Shown one piece after another: positions 3,402 through 62,372 of a DNA stretch of 64,000 nt. Each line of letters starts with the position of its first letter. The first letter of the stretch is position 1. The position numbers and the translations under genes were made by a program. Source of the DNA: an uncultured delta proteobacterium (GTDB lineage Bacteria > Desulfobacterota > Binatia > Bin18); NCBI GenBank assembly GCA_963733195.1, contig CAVTCR010000024.1, positions 1 to 64,000 of the forward strand, in the 5' to 3' direction. The notes under the pieces were generated by a model that searched no databases, was not told where the DNA came from, and saw nothing but the letters and a program-made list of their open reading frames with translations.

Positions 3402-4935
3402 GTGTGCGTTCACGGGGTCGGACTGCTAGGGCAGTGCTAGTCAACCTGGCTGAGGAATCAAGGCTGGGGGAACCGCAGTCTGGAAATAGGCGCGACAACA
3501 GGCGGTGAGATAGGCAAAGGCATTTTGCTGATGTTGCTGGCAGGTGGCGAAGACGGTGAGGATGCTCTCCACAAAGCGACTGCCGCGCTCACTCTGCCGT
3601 GCCATAACTGGTCTTACGCCATTGCACGGGATGGCGAAGCACGCGCTCAGCCACATTATTTGTCTCAGGGATATCGGGCATCCGCACGAACGTCCATAAG
3701 CGCCCGCTCTTTGGCTAAGAGCTCGCGACAGGTCGCCGCCGTTTTCTGACACCGCACTCGCGTCCCCCACTGCAACTCTAGCCGAAATGACCGGCGTAAG
3801 CCGCCCATCTGTTGTTGCCACGTGCTACGACTCCATTTGCCCTCACGCAACCAGCGGCGCCAGGCAAAGAGCACGTTGGCATGTTCGAGCAAGTGTTCGC
3901 CGACTTTCCGGCCCGGGCCGCCGCGATCAATCATCGCTTGCGCGTCTCTACGCAAATGTGACCAGCACAGTTGCCGTTGCCGCGGTGGATAACAGTCATA
4001 CGCTTTCGCGCGATCACTGCCGATCGTCCCCGTGTAATCCTTTCCTAACAACTCGTGCAGGACTTTGGCGCCACGCGAGCGGCGAATCGCATACACACTG
4101 GCCTGCGGCGTCACCACGGTCCAGAGCTGCACCCGGCGATGCTGTTCCCGCCATCGGGTCTCATCCACATTCGTATCGCTCCACTGGATCGAGTCCCGAA
4201 CCTCGTCAACCGGTTCTTGCACTGCTCGCCTCACGACCTGTTCTAAGGCGCAGACTTCGCCAGCGAGAGCGGGATCCCCCATACTTCGCGACTGAAATGG
4301 GCGATCATCCGCTTGCTCATTCGATAGGCTCCGCTACAGAGCGCGACGATACTGGTGAAACGCGGCCCATAGCCCGTCGTTGGGATGCCTTTGGGTAATG
4401 CTCCACAGGTGGTGATGCCACAGTGAGCACACGACCAGCCGGTGTTGTTGATATTCGGTCACGTGGGGCAGCGGCGGGGGGAGTTCCACCACTTGATGGC
4501 GATGGGGCTGCGGATCGTCTCCCGTGCAACGCTTGTCCACACCGCCGACAGTGCGTCGGCGTACAGACAATCACGTCATTGACCTGCTCCACCGGCACTA
4601 ACGTGCGGTGATGCGCGGGATGGCCTGGTTGTCCACCCCGTCTCCGGCCTGAGGATGGACGTGGCGGTTTGCGCTTGACGTGAGGCCCATCACTCGACGG
4701 CGGCTGCGAGGAGTTTTGCGAATTCTGGTTGCGTTGCGCTTTCAGCTCCGCCACTTCGGCTTCGAGCTTGCGCAATCCGTGCGTCATAGCGATCGAATAC
4801 TTCCCACAGCACGGCTTGCACATGTAGCGGAATCTGCTCCCATAACTCGATCGGAATTGGTGGCGTGCGTTCCATCTGCGCGCTCTCTTACCCCACTTCT
4901 AGCAGTCTACGCAAGTCTGACTGGTGAACGCACAC
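3402..4935 (-). mobile_element. IS66-family element, single-ORF (ISBst12-like)
   Basis: Terminal IRs GTGTGCGTTCAC (3402) and GTGAACGCACAC (to 4935); 8-bp target duplication ACGGGCAT at 3394-3401 and 4936-4943. Confidence 0.9.
3441..4875 (-). CDS. IS66 transposase (frameshifted)
   Basis: QNSQNSSQPPSSD, GGQPGH, CxxC Zn finger, NVDETRW, SDRAKAY and QLCWSHLRRD motifs across frames. Confidence 0.85.
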
Positions 4936-5504: not shown

Positions 5505-5749
5505 TGTTTGTATGCCTCTCCTTCATTGCACCATAGCCTTCAGAAAATCTACCGCCAAGAGGTATTGCTCTTGGCCTAATTGCGAACCTTTAAGCAGGGG
5601 CTAACGGTCCCGATCACTATTTGCCGCCCAAACCAAAACCTTTCACGTTCATCCTGAACCGCAAGCGGGTGGCGGTCACGTGGACGGCTTCGTTAGACAG
5701 CAGAGATCTGAGTGGCGGGGAACACTTCTCTTTTTGTCTCCTCCTTCAC

Positions 5750-45842: not shown

Positions 45843-47507
45843 CTAAGGGCGAGCTTTCTGAAGCGGTGACTCGGATCTGATCGCTTTCTGAAGATGAGCC
45901 CCTTGCAGGTTAGCGCCATCGAGATGGGCCCCTTGCAGATTCGCGCCATCGAGATGAGCCCCTTGCAGATCCGCCCCTTGGAGATAAGCCCCTTGTAGGT
46001 TCGCCCCTTGGAGATAGGCCCCTTGCAGATTCGCTCCTTCAAGATGGGCCTCTTGTAGATTCGCCCCTTCAAGATGGGCATTCATCAGCTTAGCATTTTG
46101 ATAGAGGAAGGCTCCTTGTAGATTCGCCCCTTCGAGATGGGCCTCAGATAAATCTGCCCTTTGGAGCCAGGCCCACGACAAGTTGGCGTTCTGGAGCTGG
46201 GCCTCAGCCAGGCTGGCGCCTTGGAGCTGAATCATGAAGAGATCGGCGTCCCGCAGATCGGCTCCCCGGAGATTCGCTTTCGCTAAAAAAGCTCGGCGGG
46301 CGTTCACGCCTCGCAAATTATGGGCTTCGAGTTGCGCTCCTTGGACTGCCTCAATCGCCTTTGCCATGTCCTCCTCTTTCTCGTATTGGGCTGCCCAATT
46401 CGGCGGTTTCGTCGAAATATTCTCTTCTTCAAGCCGGGCCGTCGCCAAGGGGAGGTGGAGATGCGCCTGCGCATACATGGGGATGTAAGAGGGGATGCCG
46501 TAGATGGCGCCGACAGAAAGAAGAGATAAGATTGCGCTGCTTACCACCGCACCGACCATGGCTTTCTTCCAGGGGAAAAGTTGCCTTTGCTCTGCTCCCC
46601 GTAGCGGCGTCGCGGCCAACCAATAGAGCAGGACAAATTCCCATATCGAGATGACGACCAAGATGATGTGCAACAGCGTTCCCCACGGATCATGTCGAGG
46701 AAGGTATTCCAGCCAGAAGAGCAAGAGCGTGACTGGCACGATCCCCCACGTGAGGAGCCCTGGTCCATGACTTTGCATAGCAGCCAGAGGAGAGCGGTCT
46801 TCCGTCGCTCGAACAGATTGTGATCGGTCGAGGCCGGTGAGAAGCCACAGAGAGGCCTTCTTCTCCAAGAGGCGGCCGTCCGGAAAGCGGACAGGTAAGT
46901 CGGCCAACAGTTCCCATAAGGGGCGGAGGTAATACAGATGCAGGTAGAGGTACAGCCCAAGCAACAGCAGGGGCGCTGCCATATAGAAGGAGGCGATAGG
47001 AATCACGGTTCCAATGATGGGCAGTGGAGAGGAGGTCGCGTTAGTAAGCAGGCGGGCGTGCGTCGTTGTGGCAATGGTAAGGATGGAATACACGCACGCC
47101 GAGAGCATCACAAAGAAGAGCGACTGGAGTCCGAGGGAGAGCTGGTCAACAATGGCAAGCTCCGGAAACGGTCGAATCTCCTCTGGGAGCTGCGCCCCAG
47201 AGACATTGGCACCTGCCAGTTGTCCCGCCAGAAGGCCTGTGGTGTGAGTAAGGTCCGCATACTGTAAGTTCGCGTCCGATAAGATAGTCCACGGGAGATG
47301 CGCCTCCTGAAGGTTAGCCTCGGAAAGGAGGGCCCCCTGCAGGTTGGCTCGCGCAAGATTTGCTTTGGACAAGTTGATTGCACAGAGATCAGCGCCGGGC
47401 AGCTGAGCCCCCGTAAGGTCCGGCAGCAATTCGGGATGCTTTTCTCGCCACGCATTCCAGACCGCTACTCCCTGCTGCAGCAGGGTAAGATGTTCTTCAT
47501 TCGCCAT
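45843..47507 (-). CDS. Membrane-spanning pentapeptide-repeat protein
   Basis: MANEEHL..L.QGV..WN.WR start, A(N/D)L repeats at both ends, ~5 TM helices in the middle; 30-bp DNA tandem repeats at ~45890-46145. Confidence 0.88.
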   Translation of the reverse strand: MANEEHLTLLQQGVAVWNAWREKHPELLPDLTGAQLPGADLCAINLSKANLARANLQGALLSEANLQEAHLPWTILSDANLQYADLTHTTGLLAGQLAGANVSGAQLPEEIRPFPELAIVDQLSLGLQSLFFVMLSACVYSILTIATTTHARLLTNATSSPLPIIGTVIPIASFYMAAPLLLLGLYLYLHLYYLRPLWELLADLPVRFPDGRLLEKKASLWLLTGLDRSQSVRATEDRSPLAAMQSHGPGLLTWGIVPVTLLLFWLEYLPRHDPWGTLLHIILVVISIWEFVLLYWLAATPLRGAEQRQLFPWKKAMVGAVVSSAILSLLSVGAIYGIPSYIPMYAQAHLHLPLATARLEEENISTKPPNWAAQYEKEEDMAKAIEAVQGAQLEAHNLRGVNARRAFLAKANLRGADLRDADLFMIQLQGASLAEAQLQNANLSWAWLQRADLSEAHLEGANLQGAFLYQNAKLMNAHLEGANLQEAHLEGANLQGAYLQGANLQGAYLQGADLQGAHLDGANLQGAHLDGANLQGAHLQKAIRSESPLQKARP

Positions 47508-48315
47508 AGTTTCCTTTCTCTGCAAGGTCTCGTCCTGCGGGAGTACCGCTGTGGGTTGACAGAGGTCGTCGACCCGCAATGGACGAGCTGCGGCTGAGAT
47601 TCCATCAGAATGAGTATTAGCTCCTCGATAGGGTTCTGGAGCAATCCAGATATTGAACAGATTATCCCATGTGCTGTGGCAGGATTTTCCCTGAATGGGC
47701 GCTGCCTCCGCCCCCTGTACTGAAGAGGCATTCCGTTTCCCACTCCCGCTGTCGAACTCAGGCCTGTGGGTGACGTGTTGAGTTGTTCAACCGCATCTGG
47801 CCTTGGCACTTACCTTTCCCCGTACTCTCTTCCCCTACCTCCACAAGGTTGGCAGTCGAGTCCATCCGGTCGTGTTCGTGTTTCGTATCATATCAATAGA
47901 AAGGTTGTGTATGTGTATATTGAAGGCGCGTCCGATCGATTTCCATCCCCCCTTAGCTATCAAACTCCGCTCTGGCATCGTACTCGCGAACCCAAGCGTC
48001 CAGTGGCACATTGAGATCCTCGTGCAGGCGGGGATTCCCGAGGACCAATGGGCAGAGGTGGTAGCGGAGAGCGGGTTTGTGGATCCGCAGGGGACCTTCA
48101 TTGCCGGGCACGGGGCTCGGATCCTCGAAGGGAATGATTATTTCGCACAGCCGCTTGAAGAGGCCTAGCCGTGAGAGTAGACCCGAGGTCCCACGGGTCT
48201 GCCTCACTATATGAAGGGCCAACGATCCAGGTCATGCGCTGCCCCGCGCCGGGCCCCTTCCGGGCGGTTATTTCGCTGCTAATATCCCCCAAACAAAGAG
48301 AAAGGAGGCACGCGT

Positions 48316-50317: not shown

Positions 50318-50456
50318 GAAAACTTCCTATATGTAGCCACATTAACATGGCTACATATAGCCGTATAGAGCTGGCTACCCGTAGACCGTTCTGGCTATTC
50401 GTAGGAAGATGTTTCTGCTAATAGCCGGGAGCTTTGCCGTTGAATTAAAGTTAGCC
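50318..50456 (+). other. Candidate integron attI region (no intI in window)
   Basis: Ends in GCCGTTGAATTAAA-GTTAGCC (R box 50450-50456) directly upstream of a + strand cassette array; 13-bp IR CTATATGTAGCCA/TGGCTACATATAG at 50327-50360. Confidence 0.5.
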
Positions 50457-50498
50457 AAACATGTCGCGTGGCGGCGCCACGCAGGATGAAAAGAAGGC

Positions 50499-51958
50499 CT
50501 GTAAGCGCTACAGTAGTTGCCGTCTTTGGTGCGGATGAGGTCGAGACGCCTTGGTGCACACAGCCCGTAAGTTAGCCGGACCCGAGAGCCTCCTGAGGCA
50601 CCACTCAAGGTTGCGCCCGTCACGGGAAAGCACGGATAGCAGACTCTTTCTTGCATGGGGTTCTCCCCGCCAGAGGCGAAAGGAGCCTGAGATGGAAGTC
50701 GTCTACGAGTGTTGTTGTGGGCTCGACGTGCACGCCAAGACGGTTGTGGCGTGTGTGATCAAGAAAGGGCGAAAGGAAATTCGTACTTTTGCGACGATGA
50801 CGGAGGAGTTGTTGTCCCTTGGGGATTGGTTGATCAGCGAGGGCTGCACGCATGTGGCGATCGAGAGTACGGGGGTGTACTGGAAGCCGGTGTTCAATCT
50901 CTTGGAAGGGACGGTCGAGGTGATCCTCGTCAACGCGCGGCATATCAAAGCAGTGCCAGGGCGAAAGACTGATGTACGCGATTGCGAGTGGTTAGCGGAT
51001 TTGTTGCGGCATGGCTTATTGCGGGCCAGTTTTATTCCGCCGCAGGAGATTCGGGAGTTACGGGAGTTAACGCGCTATCGGCAAACCCTGCTGCGCGAAC
51101 ACACTGCCGTGGCCAATCGGCTGCAAAAACTGCTGGAAAGTGGGAACATCAAGTTGGGGCAAGTAGCAAGTGACGTACTGGGCCTGAGTGGGCGTTTGAT
51201 GTTGCACGCCTTAGCCGAAGGCGAGCAGGATGCGCGGAAGTTGGCCGAGCTGGCCCAAGGGAAGCTGAAGAATAAAAAGGACGCCCTGCGGCATGCGTTA
51301 GTCGGGCGGTTGACGCCAGTGCAACGCTGGGTGCTGGGCGAATTACTTGCGCGGGTCGAGGAACTGGATACCGCGCTTCAGCGTGTCGAGACTCGGATCG
51401 GGGAGGAAGTCGAGCACTGCTCCGACCCTTTCGTGCAGGAGGCTGTGGTGTTGCTCGATAGTATGCCGGGGATTGGCGAACACATCGCGCGCACGGTTGT
51501 CTCTGAGATTGGTGTCGACATGGCACGATTTCCCTCCGCCGAACATTTGGCGAGTTGGGCAGGGCTGTGTCCGGGCAACAATGAGTCCGCGGGCAAGCGG
51601 AAGAGTGGGCAGACGACCAAAGGCAGCCAGTATCTGCGCACCGCCCTGGTTGAAGCAGCATGGGCCGCGACGCGGGCGAAGGGGACGTTTCTGGCTGCCA
51701 AGTATTACCGCCTGGTGAAACGGATGGGCAAGAAGAAAGCGCTTGTTGCAGTGGCGCATGGCATGTTACGAGTGATTTATCCTCTGCTCCGTCGCCGCGT
51801 GGGCTACACAGACTTAGGCAGTGAGTACGTAACACAGCACCAGGTCGAGCAGCAACGGCAACGCTTAGTGAAGAAACTGGAAGCTCTTGGCCTGAAGGTC
51901 ACGCTTGAAGAAGTCGGACAAGCCGCGTAGCTCACTTACTGAGGCATTTTCATAGCAG
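50499..51958 (+). mobile_element. IS110-family element with upstream non-coding end (boundaries tentative)
   Basis: AGGCCT on both flanks (50495-50500 and 51957-51962); ~190-bp leader; ends TTTTCATAGCAG; alternative left end at 50414. Confidence 0.7.
50692..51930 (+). CDS. IS110 DEDD recombinase/transposase
   Basis: GLDVH, IESTGVYWKP, GRKTDVRDCEW, PGIG and SWAGLCPGNNESAGK. Confidence 0.95.
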   Translation: MEVVYECCCGLDVHAKTVVACVIKKGRKEIRTFATMTEELLSLGDWLISEGCTHVAIESTGVYWKPVFNLLEGTVEVILVNARHIKAVPGRKTDVRDCEWLADLLRHGLLRASFIPPQEIRELRELTRYRQTLLREHTAVANRLQKLLESGNIKLGQVASDVLGLSGRLMLHALAEGEQDARKLAELAQGKLKNKKDALRHALVGRLTPVQRWVLGELLARVEELDTALQRVETRIGEEVEHCSDPFVQEAVVLLDSMPGIGEHIARTVVSEIGVDMARFPSAEHLASWAGLCPGNNESAGKRKSGQTTKGSQYLRTALVEAAWAATRAKGTFLAAKYYRLVKRMGKKKALVAVAHGMLRVIYPLLRRRVGYTDLGSEYVTQHQVEQQRQRLVKKLEALGLKVTLEEVGQAA

Positions 51959-51992
51959 GCCTACTTGAGACAAACAGGATGGTCCGTAGCCC

Positions 51993-52556
51993 ATGGATCA
52001 CGATGCCATTCGAGACCTGATTTCGGTACTGGGATTCGTCATCTCATTGTTCTTGTTGTTCGTACACATCAAGAACAGACGTACCCAGCTGTCCTCATAC
52101 CAGCTAGCGCGAGCTACATACCGTAGTAGCTCAATCGACCTTCATTACATCGGATCAGAGCAAGTCGATGATCATGTTCTCCTGAAACTTGTTCTCTTCA
52201 ACCCTGGTTCCGTCGCAGCAATCATCCAAAGCTTTGCAGTCTTTGAAGTCTCCCCTACTCGTAATTCGATTCGTCGACTATTTTGGCCAACCGAATGGCG
52301 AAGAATCGAAGATGCCCGATGGTGGCCAACAAAGAACGCTGATCAAAAAACATCTGGATATTTAGCCGATGAGTACGAAAACCTATACGTCGAAGACTTC
52401 AGAACCATTTTGGTGTCGATACCAGGAATGATCGATTGTCGTGAGTACTTGTTTGAAGTTCGCAGCAATCATGGATCTCAAACCACAAGAACCACGATTG
52501 CTGCAACAGCGAGCCACTTTTCGCACCATTTCGAGCGGTGGTACAGAGAGAGGTAG
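51993..52556 (+). CDS. Cassette 1: hypothetical protein with N-terminal TM helix
   Basis: Stop codon abuts R'' GCCTAAC at 52557; lower GC than the flanks. Confidence 0.75.
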   Translation: MDHDAIRDLISVLGFVISLFLLFVHIKNRRTQLSSYQLARATYRSSSIDLHYIGSEQVDDHVLLKLVLFNPGSVAAIIQSFAVFEVSPTRNSIRRLFWPTEWRRIEDARWWPTKNADQKTSGYLADEYENLYVEDFRTILVSIPGMIDCREYLFEVRSNHGSQTTRTTIAATASHFSHHFERWYRER

Positions 52557-52594
52557 GCCTAACCCTTTGTTGCAGCGGACCGAATGCGTTAGGC
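52557..52594 (+). other. attC site (truncated, 38 bp)
   Basis: GCCTAAC...TTGCAGCGGAC...GTTAGGC; the L' arm is missing. Confidence 0.7.
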
Positions 52595-52603
52595 TATCTC
52601 CTC

Positions 52604-52632
52604 TTGCCGCATATGCATCGTGCATATACACT
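52604..52632 (+). promoter_or_regulatory. brnTA promoter TTGCCG-N17-TACACT with operator ATATGCA-N3-TGCATAT
   Basis: -35 at 52604-52609, -10 at 52627-52632, palindrome 52611-52627; GTG start 6 nt downstream (leaderless). Confidence 0.7.
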
Positions 52633-52638
52633 GCCCAC

Positions 52639-52923
52639 GTGAACACCTGGGACGAGCGTAAGCGGCGGAGGAATCTGAAGGATCATGGCATTGACTTTGC
52701 CGATCTGGAGGGGTTTTTCGACGGCGACCTGCTCACCCGCGAGGACACACGTGAAGCCTATGGTGAAGCACGTTACCAAAGCGTCGGGGTGTTTAATGGC
52801 GTGCCCTTGTTTGTCGTGTGGACGCCACTTGATGATGAGGGTGAGATGACCCATTTGATCTCGGCACGAAAGGCGGAAAAGCATGAATACAATGCGTGGC
52901 TCGCGCGTTACTCGAAGCGCTAA
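52639..52923 (+). CDS. brnT: BrnT toxin (cassette 2)
   Basis: WDERKRRRNLKDHGIDF, YGEARY and HLISARKA. Confidence 0.9.
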   Translation: MNTWDERKRRRNLKDHGIDFADLEGFFDGDLLTREDTREAYGEARYQSVGVFNGVPLFVVWTPLDDEGEMTHLISARKAEKHEYNAWLARYSKR

Positions 52924-53266
52924 AGGCAAAACGGACTGGGCAAAGCTCAAGGCCATGCCTGACAAGGCGATCCGGTTCACGAAAGATGCGCCTCGCACCT
53001 CACCGGAGGATTGGGCTAATGCAGTAGCTCATCGTGGACTGCCGCTGCCAGTGCGGAAGGAGCAGATTGCACTGCGTGTGGATGCGGACGTGTTGGCTTG
53101 GTTCCGCGCGCAGGGAAGTGGCTGGCAGACGCGCATGAATGAGGTGTTAAAGGCATATTGGAAAGCAATGGCGAAGGCGCGGCCTAACATGCGCCTGCAG
53201 CCTGACCGCGGCCCGCTTGCGGTTTCTGCTGAAGCCGAAAGGACTCGTTTGGGCCGCGGCGGCTGA
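52883..53266 (+). CDS. brnA: BrnA antitoxin (cassette 2), reading through the attC
   Basis: KTDWAKL, KEQIALRVDADVLAWFRAQGSGWQTRMNEVL. Confidence 0.9.
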   Translation: MNTMRGSRVTRSAKGKTDWAKLKAMPDKAIRFTKDAPRTSPEDWANAVAHRGLPLPVRKEQIALRVDADVLAWFRAQGSGWQTRMNEVLKAYWKAMAKARPNMRLQPDRGPLAVSAEAERTRLGRGG

Positions 53267-53276
53267 GGCGTTAAAC
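53182..53276 (+). other. attC site
   Basis: R'' GCCTAAC, L arms CGCCTGCAGCC/GGCTGAGGCG and R' GTTAAAC. Confidence 0.9.
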
Positions 53277-53283
53277 ACCAGTC

Positions 53284-53931
53284 ATGGTTGATCTACATCA
53301 AAAAATAGGCGGCTGGGCGGTAACCTCAACGGTGGTGATAATGTTCGTGTTAATCACCTATCTTTCACCACTGATTGCGAATGCGACCACTATGAAGCAG
53401 TTAGCTTCGATTGCTGTGGGCGCCCTCACGACAGTTGGCGTCTACAAGTCGGTGTTGTTCGCCCTGTTTCTCGGATTCAAAAAGGCTCAATGGATCCGAC
53501 GACGCTTGTTGGGCGATGCATTTCTTGAGGGTACGTGGGTTGGGCACTATCAACATGGCGGACTTAACCGCTTCACGATCGAGACGATTAGCCAAGTAGA
53601 TGGAGAGACGCGTATAAGCGGTCGTGAATTTGATGAGCACTTAAAAACTCGTGCTGACTGGTCGTCAGAAACTGCTGTCGTAGATCTGCGGCATCAGCGG
53701 CTGATCTATATGTATTCCTGCGATGTGTACGATACAAAGCATCAACAAAACGGAATTGGCGTTTTCAAAATAGTAAAGTCAGATCTCAAGCAGCCTCCGA
53801 ATATGCTTGATGGTTACTCAGTTGACCTAGTCGATGCGGAAAAGGATCGAAATACGGAGCACAAAATCGGCGATCAATTGGTCAAAACTGAAGATGCCCT
53901 TGCCGAAGCAAAACGCATATTTGGTGTTTAA
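53284..53931 (+). CDS. Cassette 3: 2TM plus beta-barrel protein (S-2TMbeta/Cap15-like)
   Basis: Two N-terminal TM helices followed by LEGTWVG and a beta-rich domain (LIYMY, G.G...LDGY). Confidence 0.6.
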   Translation: MVDLHQKIGGWAVTSTVVIMFVLITYLSPLIANATTMKQLASIAVGALTTVGVYKSVLFALFLGFKKAQWIRRRLLGDAFLEGTWVGHYQHGGLNRFTIETISQVDGETRISGREFDEHLKTRADWSSETAVVDLRHQRLIYMYSCDVYDTKHQQNGIGVFKIVKSDLKQPPNMLDGYSVDLVDAEKDRNTEHKIGDQLVKTEDALAEAKRIFGV

Positions 53932-54023
53932 CATCGCGCGCCACCGCATCGCTGCCACGTTGGGTTTAAGATAACTGTGAAAGGACGCAGTTGGGCAGCT
54001 CGCGATGCGCGGCAGCGTTAGAC
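53926..54023 (+). other. attC site
   Basis: R'' GTTTAAC (complement of the preceding GTTAAAC), R' GTTAGAC and internal inverted arms. Confidence 0.88.
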
Positions 54024-54038
54024 AGCTAGAGACATTTC

Positions 54039-54794
54039 ATGATGCATGAAGAGGAATTTGGCACAGCCGAGGACTATATTAGAGCCTTCGCGGCACTCTT
54101 GAGGGAGGGAATTGCTGAAAAGTACGTTGCCTTGCTGCAGGCCCATTTCAAGGCTCCACAGCATACCGCCACGTGGGCACAGATAGCCAAGGCTGTCGGA
54201 TACGCGAATGGCAATGCCGTCAATCTCCACTACGGAACGCTTGCAAGCCGAGTGGCGCATCACCTTGGTGTCGTCGAGCCACCTCAGGGTTTTTGGCTCT
54301 TCGTCCTCGTAAGGTGGGCAGACGAGAGGGATGCGAGCGGCCATACGGCTTTCGTACTCCGGCGTCCCGTCATTGAGGCATTAACGCAGCTCGGCATCCT
54401 GCCTGGTGAGGGGAATCTTCACCCCCCAAATCCGAAGGTAATCCCGGCGTGGGAAAACGTCGATCAAGACCTTGACCGAAAGGTGAAAGAAGCGCAGACA
54501 CTTTCATCAGAAGAGCGGCACAGACGTTTGGCCGAATCCCCCAAACACCCAGAGAAGGTATTGGTGAATACGACCATGTTCCTTCGGAACCAGTATGTCA
54601 TTAGTGAAGTGCTGACCCGCGCAAATGGAGTCTGTGAGTCGTGCCACGCTCCGGCACCATTTATACGCGTATCCGATGGCACACCGTATTTGGAGGTACA
54701 TCATCGGGTACGACTCGCAGATGGAGGTGAGGATACGGTCTCAAATGCCGTCGCGCTGTGTCCCAATTGTCACCGGAAGGCGCATTATGGATAA
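54039..54794 (+). CDS. Cassette 4: McrA-like HNH endonuclease
   Basis: RANGVCESC..PAPF....GTPYLEVHH...LADGGEDTVSNAVALCPNCHRKAHYG. Confidence 0.88.
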   Translation: MMHEEEFGTAEDYIRAFAALLREGIAEKYVALLQAHFKAPQHTATWAQIAKAVGYANGNAVNLHYGTLASRVAHHLGVVEPPQGFWLFVLVRWADERDASGHTAFVLRRPVIEALTQLGILPGEGNLHPPNPKVIPAWENVDQDLDRKVKEAQTLSSEERHRRLAESPKHPEKVLVNTTMFLRNQYVISEVLTRANGVCESCHAPAPFIRVSDGTPYLEVHHRVRLADGGEDTVSNAVALCPNCHRKAHYG

Positions 54795-54807
54795 CTGAGA
54801 GTGAACT

Positions 54808-54905
54808 GTCTAACTTTGCGCGCCACTGCATCGCTGCCCGGTTGCGGTTCTGCTAAACCTGAAAGGGCGCGTGTGGGCAGCTCGCGGTGAGCGCAAGCGT
54901 TAGCC
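54808..54905 (+). other. attC site
   Basis: R'' GTCTAAC (complement of GTTAGAC) and R' GTTAGCC. Confidence 0.88.
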
Positions 54906-54947
54906 TGCCGAAAGAATTGACTATAGCTCGTTGGAGGGGACTGTTAC

Positions 54948-57062
54948 ATGACTATTCGCGAATTGCTTGAGGGGATCAAGAAGATGGACCTGGTTCTCCC
55001 AGAATTCCAGCGCGAGTACGTGTGGGAAAAGGAACAGGCCAAACAACTTCTGGTCTCGCTTACCCGAGGCTACCCAACAGGCAGCCTTCTCGTCTGGAAA
55101 ACCGACAATCCCCCAGACATCAAGAATAGCGCCATCGACCGCGAGCACATCGGAACGACATCGGTCATTCTTGATGGCCAACAGCGGCTCACTACGCTCT
55201 ATCTTTTCACTCGTGGAGAGATTCCGCCTTACTACACCTCAAATGACATCCAGAACGACCCTCGAGATCTCTATTTCGATCTTGAAACTGGTGACTTTCA
55301 GTACTTTCAGCCGATGCGCATGCAGGGCAATCCCACCTGGGTAGCTGTCACTGAGTGCTTTCGTCCAGAACCGCTCAATGTCTTTGAGCTCGCCAGGAAG
55401 AAAGCGGTGACATCCATTGACCCCTTTCAGCTTGCTCAAACTTACAACAATAATCTAAATCGGTTGCGGAATATTCTCGAAAAGGACTACCCGATTCAGA
55501 CAGTTCCCTCTTCGGCCGAAATCGACGACGCAATCGATGTCTTCGACCGGGTGAACAGCCTCGGCACCAAGTTGACAGATGCTGACCTCGCGCTAGCCCA
55601 TATCACGGGAAAGTGGCCTCAAGCACGACGAGTAATGAAGGAGAAAATCGTAGAGCTAGGAAAACGGCACTTTTATTTCGACCTCACGTTTTTGGTTCGT
55701 AGTCTGACCGGGGTGGTCAAAGGACGTGCGCTTTTCGATACGATTCATGGGACCCCGGCAGACGAAATCAAAAACGGCTGGACTCGATTATCAAAGCTTT
55801 TGGACTACCTTGCTAGCGTGCTTCCGAAGCACGCACATGTTCATTCAACCGAAGACCTTAACACGACTAACGTTTTGGTCCCTGCGGTGGTCTATCTGGC
55901 TCACCACGAGGGCAAGTTCGGTTCAGACCAGGATCTACGACGGTTTATCCATTGGATGTACGCTGCCTCCGCATGGAGCCGTTATACTAGCCAGACAGAC
56001 CAACGACTCGATCACGATATTTCTCTTATCGTGCGCGAGCGAGACCCTTGGGCCGACCTAGTGGGCGCAATCGTCGAACAGCGTGGCCGCATCGAGGTTA
56101 AGGCCGCAGACTTGGAGGGCAGAGGCACACAACATCCGCTCTACAGGATGATGTACATCCTTGCCAAGCGCAGAGGTGCTGCGGATTGGTTCAATGGCAT
56201 GCCCCTGGACACAAACGTTGCCGGCGCATACGCAATCCATAGTCATCACATCTTCCCGACGTCCCTTCTCTACAATGCTGGCGGATACAGTCCCGAGAAC
56301 CACCTCCATAAGAAGATCGTAAATGAAATTGCGAATCGTGCGTTTCTCACGGATGAGACGAACTGGGCTCTTACGAACCGCCCTCCAGCTGAATATCTCT
56401 CCGAAATCCAGCGGCGATATCCTGGCGCTTTGATGAAGCAGTTCATTCCTGAGGACTCTGCCGTGTGGTCTTTGAATCGTTATGAGGACTTCCTGCAACG
56501 ACGGCGTGAGTCCATCGCTGACGCTTTCAACGAGTTAATGACCACTCTGACGGGCGAAATTGAGCTGCCACGAGAGCAGACGCTAGCCGAACTGCTTGTA
56601 GCAGGGGAGACTGCTACAGTCGAATTCAAGTCCTCTTTGAGATGGGACATCCGTGAAAACAGGGTAAACAAAGAACTTGAGAAGATCGTGGCAAAGACCA
56701 TCGCGGGATACCTTAATGTCGAGGGTGGTGTCCTTCTACTTGGAGTCTCGGACGATGGAAGTATCGTCGGACTCGGCAATGACTTTACCAGCCTTCCGCA
56801 CCAAAATCGGGATGGATTTGCTCAACAAATAGCTCAAGTGATTTCGTCCTACCTTGGTGCAGAGTTTGCCCCTTACGTTCGAGTTACATTCGAGGATCTT
56901 AATGGAAAGACGGCGTGTCTCGTAAGGGTCGAAGCAAGCCCGCGTCCTGTCTTCCTCGCAGACAAGGGCACGAAAGAGTTCTACATACGCACGGGTAACA
57001 CGACTCGCCCTCTCGATATGGAAGCTATGCACAACTATATCGGGATGCATTGGGAGATGTAG
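54948..57062 (+). CDS. Cassette 5: GmrSD-type (DUF262 + HNH-like DUF1524) protein fused to a C-terminal AlbA_2/Schlafen domain
   Basis: LPEFQREYVW, ILDGQQRLTTL, FDRVNSLG; HSHHIFP...IANRAFL; GETATVEFKSS...GYLNVEGGVLLLGVSDDG. Confidence 0.85.
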   Translation: MTIRELLEGIKKMDLVLPEFQREYVWEKEQAKQLLVSLTRGYPTGSLLVWKTDNPPDIKNSAIDREHIGTTSVILDGQQRLTTLYLFTRGEIPPYYTSNDIQNDPRDLYFDLETGDFQYFQPMRMQGNPTWVAVTECFRPEPLNVFELARKKAVTSIDPFQLAQTYNNNLNRLRNILEKDYPIQTVPSSAEIDDAIDVFDRVNSLGTKLTDADLALAHITGKWPQARRVMKEKIVELGKRHFYFDLTFLVRSLTGVVKGRALFDTIHGTPADEIKNGWTRLSKLLDYLASVLPKHAHVHSTEDLNTTNVLVPAVVYLAHHEGKFGSDQDLRRFIHWMYAASAWSRYTSQTDQRLDHDISLIVRERDPWADLVGAIVEQRGRIEVKAADLEGRGTQHPLYRMMYILAKRRGAADWFNGMPLDTNVAGAYAIHSHHIFPTSLLYNAGGYSPENHLHKKIVNEIANRAFLTDETNWALTNRPPAEYLSEIQRRYPGALMKQFIPEDSAVWSLNRYEDFLQRRRESIADAFNELMTTLTGEIELPREQTLAELLVAGETATVEFKSSLRWDIRENRVNKELEKIVAKTIAGYLNVEGGVLLLGVSDDGSIVGLGNDFTSLPHQNRDGFAQQIAQVISSYLGAEFAPYVRVTFEDLNGKTACLVRVEASPRPVFLADKGTKEFYIRTGNTTRPLDMEAMHNYIGMHWEM

Positions 57063-57095
57063 CTTGGCAACTGGGCGGAACGGCAAGCTAACCCC

Positions 57096-57600
57096 TATCA
57101 GGCCGCCGATGTCAAGAGGGCAGACGGATGCATCGCGGGGGCGGGGTGGCCGTCCGAGAAACATATGGTGAACCATCTTCGCCAAGCGTTTGCGGCTGAC
57201 TTGATTTCGGTTGCTGGTCACAGCCTGTGAGCTGCACCAAACACCTATTGAGGGTCGATGTTTCCGTGGAGCAATGTTCCACGGGAAACAGTGGCCCCCG
57301 CAAGAGGCCACGTCCTAGAAACTCTTCTGTGCCCTCATGCCGGTCTTCTCAATGCAGCGGGTTGTGTCCGAAGACACTCCTAGTTAGTGCCAGACTCGGG
57401 GGAGGGGCAGCCACGGGGCACTTGGTGACGGATCACCAAGAAGATGAGCGGGAGAGACGGTCCAATCAAACGCCTGCGGCTCCGGGGCTGTGCGTCCAGA
57501 TGTTCCCTCACAGTCCGTGCTGTATATATAAGGAAGGAACATCGAAGGGGCTCTACCCGTTGTCGGCCAGTTAGGCGGCGGGCTCCGTCTCTCCCCTCAG
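57096..57600 (-). ncRNA. Candidate bridge/seek RNA of the attC-targeting IS110
   Basis: Several hairpins including GTGTC-TTCG-GACAC (minus strand); CAACCCGCTGC (revcomp of 57354-57364) matches junction 58735-58745; GCCTAAC (revcomp of 57570-57576). Confidence 0.55.
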
Positions 57601-57603
57601 CGG

Positions 57604-58649
57604 TTACGCGGTGACAAAGCGATTGAGATCAAACGCTTGTTCCCGCGTGAGCATGTAGTACACGGCCCGGCCCAGCTTGTGCGCGAGCACGGTGAGCGCT
57701 TTGGCTTTGCCGTGTTTGTGTTCCAATTTCGCAAAATACTCTTTGCCCGGTTGATTCTGCCGTAAGAAGAGGACCGCGGCTTCGGCAAACGCCCAGCGCA
57801 AGTGCACGTTGCCGATCTTTTTGCCCGAGGTGCCCAGCCGTTTGCCGCCCGATTCTTTGGCGCACTTCACCAAGCGACAGTAGGAGACAAAATCTTGCAC
57901 GCGCGGAAAGCGGGCGATGTCCTGAATTTCATACAGAATGACCAACGCCAGAATCTGCCCGATGCCCGGGACGGATTGGAGCCGGGCGAACGTCTGGACA
58001 TCGTGCGTTTTGGCACTCCGGGTAATGATAGAGTTCCACTTCGCCGAGCAATTTGTCATAGTGATCAATGAGCGACACATCGACTTCAATGGTCTTGCGG
58101 ACACTGGGATCGGGAAAGTGCTCTTCCACTCCCTCGCGATTGGCTTTGTACGCCAGCTTTTTGCCGATCTCGGGGAGATTGTACTGACTATTGGTATTGT
58201 GGATGTGGGCTAAGAGTTCGGCGCGTTTGCGTACCAGATGACAGCGACGGCGTAGCAAGTCTCGGGTCGCCCGCATCTCTGCAGGATAGACATACGCTTG
58301 GGGGAACATCCCGCCGCGCAATAAGACCGCAATCTTGTGCGCATCAATTTTATCGTTCTTGGCTTTGCCCCCATGAATCGCCTTCATATAGAGGGCATGG
58401 CCCAGGACAAAGGCAATTCCTTCCTTCTGACAGAGGTCCGCCAGCCAATACCACGTGAACATACATTCGACGCCGACGACCACATCCTCGCGATACGGCG
58501 CAATGATCCGCAAAAACGCCTCGGGGGTCGTCGGCAGATTTTTGTGGACCAGTTTCGTGCCACTGTTGATCGAGGATACAGACGTACATCGCCTTCGCAT
58601 GTAGATCGATGCCACAATAATGTTTATGTTGCTGCGTGTAGAAATTCAT
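57604..58649 (-). CDS. IS110 transposase (frameshifted)
   Basis: YCGIDLHAK, VECMFTWYW, KAKNDKIDA, SVPGIG, SYCRL...ESGGK and GNVHLRWAF.EAA. Confidence 0.9.
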
Positions 58650-58905
58650 CCAGGTATCCTCCTTGTGGAGTGGATTGTTGTGGTACAGCCATCCTACCGC
58701 TGCACTCGCAGCACGAGGAGGCCTGGATGAGTATCAACCCGCTGCCACCGCATCGCCGCCCGGTTGCGGTTCTGGCTGAACCTGAAAGGCCGCGTTGGGG
58801 CGGCTCGCGGTGACGCGGGGGCGTTAGGCCACAGTGGTGGAAGCAACATAACCACCAGGGTGTCATAGAGATCGGAACACTTCAGACATACGGGAGGATG
58901 ACGAC

Positions 58906-60624: not shown

Positions 60625-60724
60625 GCCTAACAATCGCCTCCAGCCCGACCGCGGCCCGCTTGCGGTTCTGACTGAATCTTAGAGATTTGTTTGGGCTGCG
60701 GCGGCTGAGGATGAGGCGTTAGGC
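60625..60724 (+). other. attC site
   Basis: R'' GCCTAAC, R' GTTAGGC; very similar to attC 53182. Confidence 0.9.
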
Positions 60725-61128: not shown

Positions 61129-62372
61129 TAAATCGGCCCACACGAGATTGGCACAGAGACGCACACGCTGATAGATCAAGAGTTGTGAGACTATTGCAAC
61201 GATCAGCGAGGAGTTCTGTGCCGAGACCTACGATAGTGGAGATTCCCCTTGCCGAGCAAGCCCGCATGCGGGCGGAATTACGTCGCGCCCGGTATGGATA
61301 CCTGTTGGCCCTTCATCTGGTGCTCCGTGCGCTGCCGGGCGGACCCCGAGCGAAGTGGCCGCGGTACTCTTTTGTTCGCGCTCCAGTGTGTACCGGATCG
61401 TTCGGGCATACCAGGCCGGAACGCTCACCTTCGATGAGGCCAGCGACCACGCCCCGAAAGCAGCAACGGCTGCGGCGACTCACCCCGTCGCTCAAACGCT
61501 CCGTGCAAGCGCTGCTCAAGACGGCCCCCCGGGCGTTGGGCTGGTGTCGCACGCGGTGGAGCTGCGCGGCGCTAGTCACCGAACTCCAAATCCGCCGCGG
61601 GATTGAGGTCTCAGCCGAGACGATGCGCCACTGGCTCCATGAGTTGGGCTGGGAATGGAAACGCGCAAAGTTAGCTGCTAAGGATGACGACCCACAACGC
61701 GTGGAAAAATTGGCTCGCATTCGGCTGGCCTACGAACAACTGCGAGCAGGTATGGCCCTGTTCTTTGCCGACGAGTTGGATATCAGTCTGTTACCCAAGG
61801 TGGGGCTATCAATGGATGCTCAAGGGGGAACAAGTCGAGGTAATGACCCCAGGGACCAACGAAAAGCGTTATCTGGCCGGAGCCCTCGACCTGACTACCG
61901 GAACGATCACGCAGTGTGTGTGGTATCGCAAACAGACCGGGCTTTTTATTGACCTGCTGGAGACGCTCGATCGGACGCATCCCGCGCCGCTCTTTACCCA
62001 CCTCACCATCGTGGTCGATAACGCGAAACTGCATAAGGCTAAGAAAGTGCAGCAGTGGCTCGCTGCCCATCCCCGCTTCGAGTTGCTGTACTTACCGACC
62101 TACTGTCCGCGCGCCAATCCGATCGAGCGGGCCTTTGGCGATGTCCATGACAAATGTACCCGTAACCACACCCGCAAACGGATGTGGCATCTGGTGCAAG
62201 ATGTAAAACGGCCATCTGCGAAGCAATGGACCGTGGCGGTATGCCCTCTCCGAGATCTACTACACCCCGGAAGTGACGGCAGCGGTCGAAGCCCTACAGA
62301 CTGCGGATAGCTCACTTGTTGCGCTCTCACAACTTGCCGCCTGAGTGTACGAATGTCGCCTGGTTCGATTTA
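61129..62372 (+). mobile_element. IS630-family element
   Basis: Ends TAAATCG / CGATTTA with duplicated TA in a CTAG target; transposase motifs RWSC, FADE, VVDNAKLH and LPTYCPRANPIER (frameshifted, ~61218-62310). Confidence 0.9.

Follow-up and report, generated by a model that had tools for sequence, protein, structure and literature searches.

A predicted anti-phage protein combining a BrxU-like GmrSD core with a prokaryotic Schlafen domain, encoded by an integron cassette of an uncultured Binatia bacterium

Background

We report that a 64,000-nucleotide stretch of DNA from an uncultured delta proteobacterium (Desulfobacterota; Binatia; Bin18), comprising positions 1 to 64,000 of contig CAVTCR010000024.1 (C24) in assembly GCA_963733195.1 and hereafter referred to as the window, carries an intact gene at 54948..57062 (+) for a 704-residue protein in which a GmrSD/BrxU-like part is fused to a prokaryotic Schlafen domain. 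Judged by its sequence the defence gene is genuine, intact and well conserved, and it is mobile as a cassette; its product can be placed by domains and motifs as an additional long-form member of a class of prokaryotic Schlafen proteins, pSlfn7, that was published in 2026. We consider it fairly probable that the protein acts alone against phages, as a representative of the BrxU branch of the GmrSD family equipped with a Schlafen ribonuclease (RNase), and that it would sense and cut foreign DNA and cleave tRNA as a second layer of defence. Both the dependence on modified DNA and the cleavage of tRNA are, for this protein as well as for the long-form subfamily, extrapolated from relatives.

Results and discussion

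Architecture of the 704-residue protein

The open reading frame (ORF) runs from an ATG start to a stop codon at 57060-57062 without any internal stop, and the gene is present in one copy in the 6.95-Mb genome (87 contigs). A preliminary description of this DNA, drawn up from the letters, had named an intact 704-residue ORF together with motifs of a GmrSD protein (FQR, DGQQR, F..VN), of an HNH-like region (HHIFP...N) and of an AlbA_2 domain (E...VEFKSS, N.EGG.L.LGV.DDG); the ORF was borne out and all of the motifs were found in the protein. Specifically, the DUF262 / GmrSD_N domain (a ParB-like nucleoside triphosphatase, NTPase; 54954..55604, +, residues 3-219) has FQRE at residues 20-23 (QR at 21-22), DGQQR at 76-80 and FDRVN at 199-203 (FxxxN). 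It is followed by an alpha-helical linker (55605..56219, +, residues about 220-424) and by a His-Me (HNH) finger (56220..56387, +, residues about 425-480) with HSHHIFP at 431-437 and then N463 and N472. The Schlafen / AlbA_2 domain (56583..57059, +, residues about 546-704) closes the protein and contains ETATVEFKSS at 554-563, NVEGG at 590-594 and LGVSDDGS at 598-605.

The proposed architecture of a GmrSD protein with a C-terminal AlbA_2 domain was confirmed by a Pfam domain search, which gave GmrSD_N (PF03235) at residues 3-219 (E 5.5e-31, 108.7 bits with a cut-off of 33.2) and SLFN_AlbA_2 (PF04326) at residues 554-689 (E 3.4e-17, 63.5 bits with a cut-off of 25.3), and a search of NCBIfam assigned no family to the protein. 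The structure was modelled with AlphaFold2 from a 39-sequence alignment, with a mean predicted local distance difference test score (pLDDT) of 90.3 and a predicted template modelling score (pTM) of 0.70. The agreement of motifs, profiles and fold over three modules is far beyond chance.

The BrxU-like core

Sequence profiles and the modelled fold place residues 1-532 in the BrxU branch of the GmrSD family. The PADLOC profile HEC-05 (PDLC04151) matches residues 1-532 over profile positions 26-594 of 600 (E 1.6e-47), and the HEC-05 homologue chosen by Payne et al. is described as 99.2% identical to BrxU, a GmrSD-like single-gene defence protein directed against modified DNA (10.1101/2024.01.29.577857). 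A sequence search of the PDB aligned the BrxU entry 7p9k to residues 2-319 (E 9.4e-13), and BrxU (7p9k/7p9m) was also the top structural match of the model (Foldseek E 2.6e-15 over 610 columns). In the VIA structure comparison, which is the source of all Z-scores given here, BrxU reached Z 21.5 with model residues 1-532 on chain residues 6-579, while single parts of the core were matched by ParB/Noc chains (residues 1-207, Z 4.4-5.3), by the C-terminal part of SspE (residues 208-536, Z 11.4) and by Cas9 HNH domains (residues 379-511, Z 4.8-5.3). SspE and DndI have the overall DUF262-linker-HNH fold in common with the core, more weakly than BrxU (Z 10.4-11.4), but both sense phosphorothioates and work with Ssp/Dnd modification genes, and such genes are absent around the gene studied here.

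By its published hallmarks (10.1101/2024.04.04.588119), a GmrSD protein has the motifs QR, DGQQR and FxxxN in its DUF262 domain, which a helical linker joins to a His-Me finger whose histidine closes beta-1 and whose two asparagines lie in a loop and in a helix. All of these features (motifs, helical linker and DUF1524 His-Me finger) are present in the 704-residue protein. In the model, the linker forms helices at 211-408, with block pLDDT mostly above 90, that align with BrxU, and in the HNH region H434 closes the strand 430-434, N463 stands before the strand 464-468 and N472 lies inside the helix 469-475. The HNH-like region of the preliminary description is carried by the HEC-05 profile, the BrxU structure match and the secondary structure of the model, Pfam alone being weak at this place. 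BrxU and our protein both have a DUF262 domain with QR/DGQQR/FxxxN, a helical linker and a His-Me finger, and both are single-gene systems; the differences are that BrxU is without a Schlafen domain and that the identity is only about 20%. In BrxU as well as in TgvB, which act on modified DNA, the DGQQR motif and the His-Me residues are reported to be needed for defence (10.1101/2024.04.04.588119).

The Schlafen / AlbA_2 domain

Residues 540-702 of the model could be superposed on the bacterial AlbA_2 protein DIP2311 with Z 14.3 (root-mean-square deviation 3.1 over 142 residues), on SAMD9 with Z 13.1 (entry 'hSAMD9_DBD with DNA') and Z 12.4 (a tRNase, 9o0d), and on SLFN11, 13, 14, 5 and 12 with Z 9-10 (SLFN11, Z 10.2, model residues 541-671 on chain residues 188-327). 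A phmmer alignment to the Schlafen chain 5yd0, which with E 0.15 is weak alone, places ETATVEFK on ESASIEFK and GGVLLLGVSDDGS on GGYLLFGVDDES. The AlbA_2 fold is thus common to this domain, the catalytic lobe of the eukaryotic SLFN11/13/14 and SAMD9, and the 5yd0 alignment spans the Ex4ExK motif; however, a eukaryotic Schlafen chain combines two lobes with a helicase, whereas here a single lobe sits on a restriction-enzyme core.

The conserved active-site motif of prokaryotic Schlafens is Ex4(E/D)xK, and Schlafen domains have been established in relatives as metal-dependent tRNases (Perez Taboada et al., PMC13056530). In the 704-residue protein the motif corresponds to E554, E559 and K561 and is accompanied by D602. 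The preliminary description had let its RNase assignment stand or fall with the catalytic acidic residues of the AlbA_2 domain, and E554, E559 and D602 are all kept, in addition to K561.

Family, conservation and an exchangeable C-terminal slot

By its homologues, the protein belongs to a large family that is conserved across phyla, with the long form widespread in bacteria and archaea. In a word-indexed homologue search 8,000 candidates were scored, of which 2,719 proteins reached E <= 0.001; an exhaustive phmmer search against 1.84 billion cluster representatives yielded 13,374 hits at this threshold, 914 of them at E <= 1e-30. The best 120 of the 2,719 (59-93% identity), which come from Planctomycetes, Chloroflexi, Tissierellia and unclassified metagenome-assembled genomes (MAGs), include 119 with 99-100% coverage; all 120 have PF03235 and PF04326, eight have PF07510 (GmrSD_C), and where a name is given it is only 'DUF262 domain-containing protein'. 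Plasmid-borne relatives of full length were moreover found, at 42.6% identity in the halophilic archaeon DL31, at 40.8% in Haloquadratum walsbyi C23 and at 37.1% in Sinorhizobium meliloti. Seven phage records match the protein and none of the seven covers 80% or more of it.

Conservation was scored in an alignment of 173 stored sequences of 640-830 residues, of which 161 align at all three modules; these 161 rows are not independent, about 120 of them being close relatives. DGxQR is present in 160, N463 in 161, H434 in 144 and N472 in 141 of them, and in the Schlafen domain E554 is present in 158, E559 in 156, K561 in 156 and D602 in 150. Ex4ExK as a whole is intact in 155/161, and these counts therefore indicate that the RNase motif is kept at least as strongly as the DNase histidine. 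The six rows without it are four proteins with HEPN-like tails, P0172, which is misaligned because of a longer linker and still has its Pfam Schlafen match, and P0147, which is truly degenerate.

The C-terminal tails were surveyed in 217 stored proteins with a near-complete core. The tail is a Schlafen domain in 157 and some other sequence of at least 100 residues in 21, and the remaining 39 stop no more than 60 residues after the core; since an intermediate tail length was seen in 0/217, the tail-less forms are not truncations. The motif RNxxxH, which we take to be the HEPN signature, occurs in 5/20 other tails (P0131, P0175, P0182, P0187 and P0259, where it comes with replacement of the Schlafen domain) as against 0/47 Schlafen tails and 2/106 cores, and two of these five tails also give weak, sub-threshold Pfam HEPN matches. 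Some 14 more tails, 118-456 residues long, could not be assigned to a Pfam family. A ParB(DUF262)-HNH fusion is listed among the HEPN architectures by Anantharaman et al. 2013 (PMC3710099), and such ParB(DUF262)-HNH-HEPN fusions resemble our protein in having the same core and a C-terminal RNase-type domain, but differ in that the RNase fold is HEPN and not Schlafen. That two unrelated RNase folds, Schlafen and HEPN, use the same slot is the best comparative argument for the Schlafen domain being an effector.

A quick maximum-likelihood tree was computed for the core from 106 rows, with only 10 Schlafen rows of the best-120 set kept to thin close relatives; on it the Schlafen label changes at least 17 times, 15 of these changes being forced by starred branches, compared with a mean of 35 after shuffling. 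The starred clade that holds the 704-residue protein has 30 rows, of which 26 are Schlafen, three tail-less and one with another tail. Gains and losses of the Schlafen domain are not separable on this unrooted tree, and the tree of the Schlafen domain itself (47 rows, 160 columns) is too poorly resolved for gain versus loss, only local clades matching the core tree.

Relation to class pSlfn7

A catalogue of prokaryotic Schlafen proteins by Perez Taboada et al. (Nat Microbiol 2026, PMC13056530) comprises 5,930 entries and distinguishes 55 architectures, one of which is class pSlfn7 (DUF262.pSlfn); this class accounts for 109 proteins (1.8%) and is listed with a defence score of 0.76. According to the same source, EcoSlfn7 from E. 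coli UC4224 brings T7 plating down about 540-fold and also acts on T2, T4, T5, T3 and T6, with no effect on lambda, P1 and T1 (PMC13056530). The idea that a DUF262-Schlafen fusion serves in phage defence, which was already part of the preliminary description, agrees with this protection of E. coli.

The 704-residue protein has what defines pSlfn7 in Pfam terms, i.e. PF04326 above threshold, fused to DUF262, and Ex4(E/D)xK. One listed member, NC_017457.1_46 (52940-55066), is 40.8% identical to it over residues 1-702 (E 1e-166) and is the same protein as the plasmid-borne Haloquadratum homologue mentioned above. Gene lengths, as counted for 58/109 class rows, are 1,746-1,869 nt in 42 (EcoSlfn7-like) and at least 2,100 nt in 16 (like our gene), and several of the long genes lie inside type I restriction-modification or BREX loci. 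Class pSlfn7 as published takes in the three-module long form, but the available part of that paper does not treat it separately, and the two members tested there, EcoSlfn7 and EluSlfn7, are both of the short form (~590 residues). A literature search with partial coverage revealed no paper that describes or tests the long form; a DUF262/GmrSD-Schlafen fusion is not treated in the available text of PMC6765204, and a 2026 BREX survey names GmrSD and Schlafen effectors separately (PMC12839542).

EcoSlfn7 and our protein are alike in having an N-terminal DUF262 and a C-terminal PF04326 with Ex4(E/D)xK. They differ in that the Schlafen parts are not significantly alike, leaving no homology over the full length, and in that DUF262 of EcoSlfn7 matches NsnA and PD-T4-2_A and not HEC-05. 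EcoSlfn7 is furthermore carried in a P2-like prophage (NZ_CP104472.1, 4519514-4521283, between the replication endonuclease and portal genes) and not in an integron. Another characterised member of the same effector domain family is RorSlfn5, a Schlafen fusion outside class pSlfn7, described as a phage-triggered, Mn2+-dependent tRNase that cuts the anticodon arm of tRNA and forms a hexamer (PMC13056530); unlike our protein it has an Ig-like sensor, triggered by the T5 tail assembly chaperone, and is without a DNase module.

Possible mechanism and alternative explanations

In the mechanism that we favour, the DUF262 NTPase domain would sense foreign, probably modified, DNA, and sensing would license the His-Me finger to cut this DNA, as in BrxU. 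Either this activation or its failure would then switch on the Schlafen domain, which would cleave tRNA in a metal-dependent manner as in RorSlfn5 and SLFN11/13, and cleavage of tRNA would arrest translation and in this way provide the second layer. A two-tier system encoded by a single gene had been put forward in the preliminary description; of this the architecture stands, although it is not new in view of the published class pSlfn7, and the link between DNA and RNase activity keeps the status of a proposal.

Several points weigh against the mechanism as outlined. The coupling of DNA sensing to the firing of the RNase is pure conjecture on our part, BrxU defends without a Schlafen domain, and Schlafen-less relatives are common (39/106 tree rows have no tail). 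T7 DNA is unmodified, and because EcoSlfn7 protects best against T7, sensing by DUF262 need not mean sensing of modified DNA. The Pfam match to GmrSD_C (PF07510) at residues 400-482 gives 14.4 bits and is under the cut-off of 23. Among the 155 relatives that keep Ex4ExK, 15 have replaced H434 by Y, R or K (P0039, P0042, P0044, P0076 and P0105, with 62-64% identity, and ten others), from which it follows that DNA cutting is dispensable in some lineages; the pattern suggests that these lineages may rely on the RNase alone. In P0235 the C-terminal slot is occupied by RAMA+Mrr_N, which are DNA-reading domains. Finally, with respect to the tested proteins, EcoSlfn7 has 589 residues, shows no GmrSD_C/HNH match and is 24% identical to our protein over DUF262 residues 20-213 only (E 5e-7, BLASTP), and EluSlfn7 was reported to be inactive (PMC13056530).

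Some of these points are shared by the main rival, in which the Schlafen RNase is the sole effector and the whole BrxU-like part, HNH included, is confined to sensing, regulation and scaffolding of oligomers, presumably like DUF262 in EcoSlfn7. Such a role would fit the defence provided by EcoSlfn7 without a detectable HNH domain, the loss of H434 in 15/155 Ex4ExK keepers, and the view of Perez Taboada et al. that the domains fused to pSlfn proteins are sensors (PMC13056530), but leaves aside that H434, N463 and N472 are all present here, with H434 in 144/161 and N463 in 161/161 relatives, and that the same residues are needed for defence in BrxU and TgvB (10.1101/2024.04.04.588119); we regard it as unlikely. 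To be judged just as sceptically is the view of the long form as a restriction enzyme equipped with its own fail-safe, in which the core first attacks modified phage DNA and the Schlafen tRNase fires only when the engaged core cannot finish, for example because it is overwhelmed or a phage inhibitor blocks it. A single polypeptide would in this way shift from direct immunity to abortive infection, and the two-nuclease unit would move as a single integron cassette in which the RNase slot is exchangeable (Schlafen or HEPN).

It is quite improbable that the protein is a conventional type IV restriction enzyme in which AlbA_2 binds or senses nucleic acid (e.g. single-stranded or modified DNA) and is not an RNase, since the conservation of Ex4ExK (155/161) and D602 (150/161) would be hard to explain for mere binding, and HEPN-like RNase tails with RNxxxH replace Schlafen in 5/20 relatives with other tails. 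The structural matches include 'hSAMD9_DBD with DNA' (Z 13.1) and 'DNA/RNA binding protein' entries, as expected for a binding domain, yet there is also a tRNase entry for the same SAMD9 domain (9o0d); RAMA+Mrr_N at the C-terminus of one relative and a core that works alone in BrxU are in keeping with binding as well.

Activity of both nucleases, as in the favoured mechanism, would unite in a single protein two defence logics that are usually separate, restriction acting directly on phage DNA and a stop of translation through cleavage of tRNA, and would offer a compact model of sensor handover between the two. The long form makes clear predictions for separation-of-function mutants, the published tests having covered the short, HNH-less form.

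An integron cassette with an inserted IS

An imperfect palindrome of about 100 nt is present 3' of each of the successive genes upstream of the 704-residue gene, i.e. those for BrnT/BrnA, a 215-residue protein and a 251-residue HNH protein. A profile built from four copies, with a match threshold of E <= 1e-3, detected 63 copies on 28 contigs of the genome, arranged in same-strand runs and mostly 0.56-5 kb apart. The 5' end reads TAAC in 35/43 rows reaching it and the 3' end GTTA in 39/54; in the stem, compensatory double changes occur in 17/33 pairs and 78% of the cells are paired. The textbook core-site strings of attC are RYYYAAC and GTTRRRY, and in their strict form these were found in 20/63 and 21/63 copies, respectively. 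An intact integron integrase is encoded on contig C33 (20009-20953; TIGR02249, 477.4 bits with a cut-off of 265, and 0/14 control genomes above the cut-off), and several broken integrase copies were noted elsewhere in the genome. Given the repeat array with its ends and stem, and the intact integron integrase in the genome, we interpret the palindromes as attC sites and the 704-residue gene as an integron cassette. A search for IntI on contig C24 gave no match, and the array is hence not adjacent to an integrase and attI on this contig. As C24 is without an integrase and the assembly is fragmented, the array is either an integrase-less attC cluster or a fragment of a larger array.

The cassette spans about 54900-58823, and the ORF starts 48 nt inside its boundary. 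The upstream attC lies at 54808..54905 (+; R'' 54808-54814, R' 54899-54905; palindrome detected at 54807-54908). The cassette's own attC is split: its left, R''-like end is at 57086..57092 (+), 23 nt past the stop codon, and is followed by an insertion sequence (IS) of the IS110/IS1111 family (about 57093-58736, -; Pfam DEDD_Tnp_IS110 and Transposase_20), and the remainder of the attC occupies 58737..58829 (+; R' 58823-58829; palindrome detected at 58728-58830). The IS1111-type transposase is frameshifted, with frames at 57604-58104 and 57929-58615, and has a non-coding region of about 510 nt downstream. Five other copies of the R''+IS+attC unit in the genome (C41, C34 twice, C81 and C6; 81-91% identity) share its junction, and the element therefore appears to target attC sites, as has been described for IS1111 members, which target one end of attC sites (PMC11187229). 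Contigs of two metagenomic DNA runs track the gene to 57091 and then diverge from the window, a pattern that IS-free copies would produce.

Other attC-like palindromes are found in the window at 53182-53285, 53925-54026 and 60625-60724 and also at 5598-5699 (-), and beyond the window on C24 at 64059-64156 and 65406-65504, the contig ending inside the last of these. The left edge of the array is occupied by a second IS110-family element (50449-51960) with an intact 459-residue frame and an 87%-identical copy on C33. About 135 nt to the left of this element (50318-50456) recur on seven other contigs (C68, C28, C19, C66, C63, C1 and C39), and two of these copies (C66 and C1) are near integrase fragments. 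An IS630-like transposase at 61185-62310 (+), in two overlapping frames (HTH_33, then DDE_3), lies within the cassette array. A composite transposon was considered and rejected, the flanking IS110-family transposases being only 34% identical over 76 residues and no inverted repeats having been found.

Chromosomal integrons are described as reservoirs of defence cassettes in an earlier report (10.1101/2024.07.02.601686), the available text of which has 0 occurrences each of GmrSD, DUF262 and Schlafen. Carriage of the pSlfn7 long form by an integron cassette is an unreported setting in the literature covered here, and the 2.3-kb cassette adds a large three-domain system to the defence cassettes known from chromosomal integrons (10.1101/2024.07.02.601686).

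Occurrence and transcription

Near-identical sequence was found in 15 DNA runs of 15 studies of rhizosphere and soil (word share >= 0.25), one of which may be the source sample. Pieces of the gene with 0-2 differences were also present as contigs of two metatranscriptome libraries, i.e. 55143-55323, 55473-55642 and 55646-55910 in X16, and 55310-55447, 56114-56264 and 56264-56414 in X17. We take these as a weak hint of transcription, weak because DNA can contaminate metatranscriptome libraries. Cassettes far from the integron promoter are often silent, C24 has no integrase and the attC of the gene is split by an IS, but with an intact 704-codon frame, all motifs present, a 93%-identical full-length homologue, near-identical copies in 15 DNA runs and pieces in two RNA libraries, it is very hard to credit that the cassette is silent or decaying and now serves no function in its host. 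The segment 54973-55063 is uncovered by contigs in four runs, which carries no weight, and a contig joint from 57138 back to 54849 (side 34, one run) is most likely repeat-derived and was not used.

Neighbouring genes and other features of the window

The genes around eight full-length relatives (MAGs of five or more lineages) are not conserved, and the 704-residue gene therefore works alone. The neighbours at these related loci are variable and often defence or mobile genes; they include Eco57I-type methyltransferases, prokaryotic Argonaute (pAgo) with SIR2, HamA with a helicase (Hachiman-like), an SNF2 helicase and recombinases, besides housekeeping genes. A multi-gene system was also rejected as a candidate, given that tblastn of six window neighbours against nine related loci gave only a single HNH match of 63 residues, in locus L007.

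The cassette directly upstream encodes the 251-residue HNH protein (54039-54794, +; PF01844 E 3.4e-11, PADLOC mREase_IV E 3.2e-21), so that, as predicted from these matches, adjacent cassettes hold two putative modification-dependent nucleases. Next to it, the 215-residue cassette protein (53284-53931, +) has no Pfam, PHROG or PADLOC match; its protein-language-model features are near clusters in which some members have Cap15 cyclic-dinucleotide-receptor domains (score 0.93-0.96), which serves as a lead only. The BrnT/BrnA toxin-antitoxin cassette is at 52441-53266 (+; Pfam E 1.7e-21 and 1.3e-19), and the BrnT match sets in only at residue 70 of the frame as listed, which makes a start codon further downstream probable. 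In the rest of the window, 7-45 kb is taken up by genes for catabolic enzymes (amidohydrolases, luciferase-like monooxygenases, P450 and CoA-transferases), a 578-residue pentapeptide-repeat protein is encoded at 45843-47579 (-), and fragments of an IS66-family transposase are found at 3665-4823 (-).

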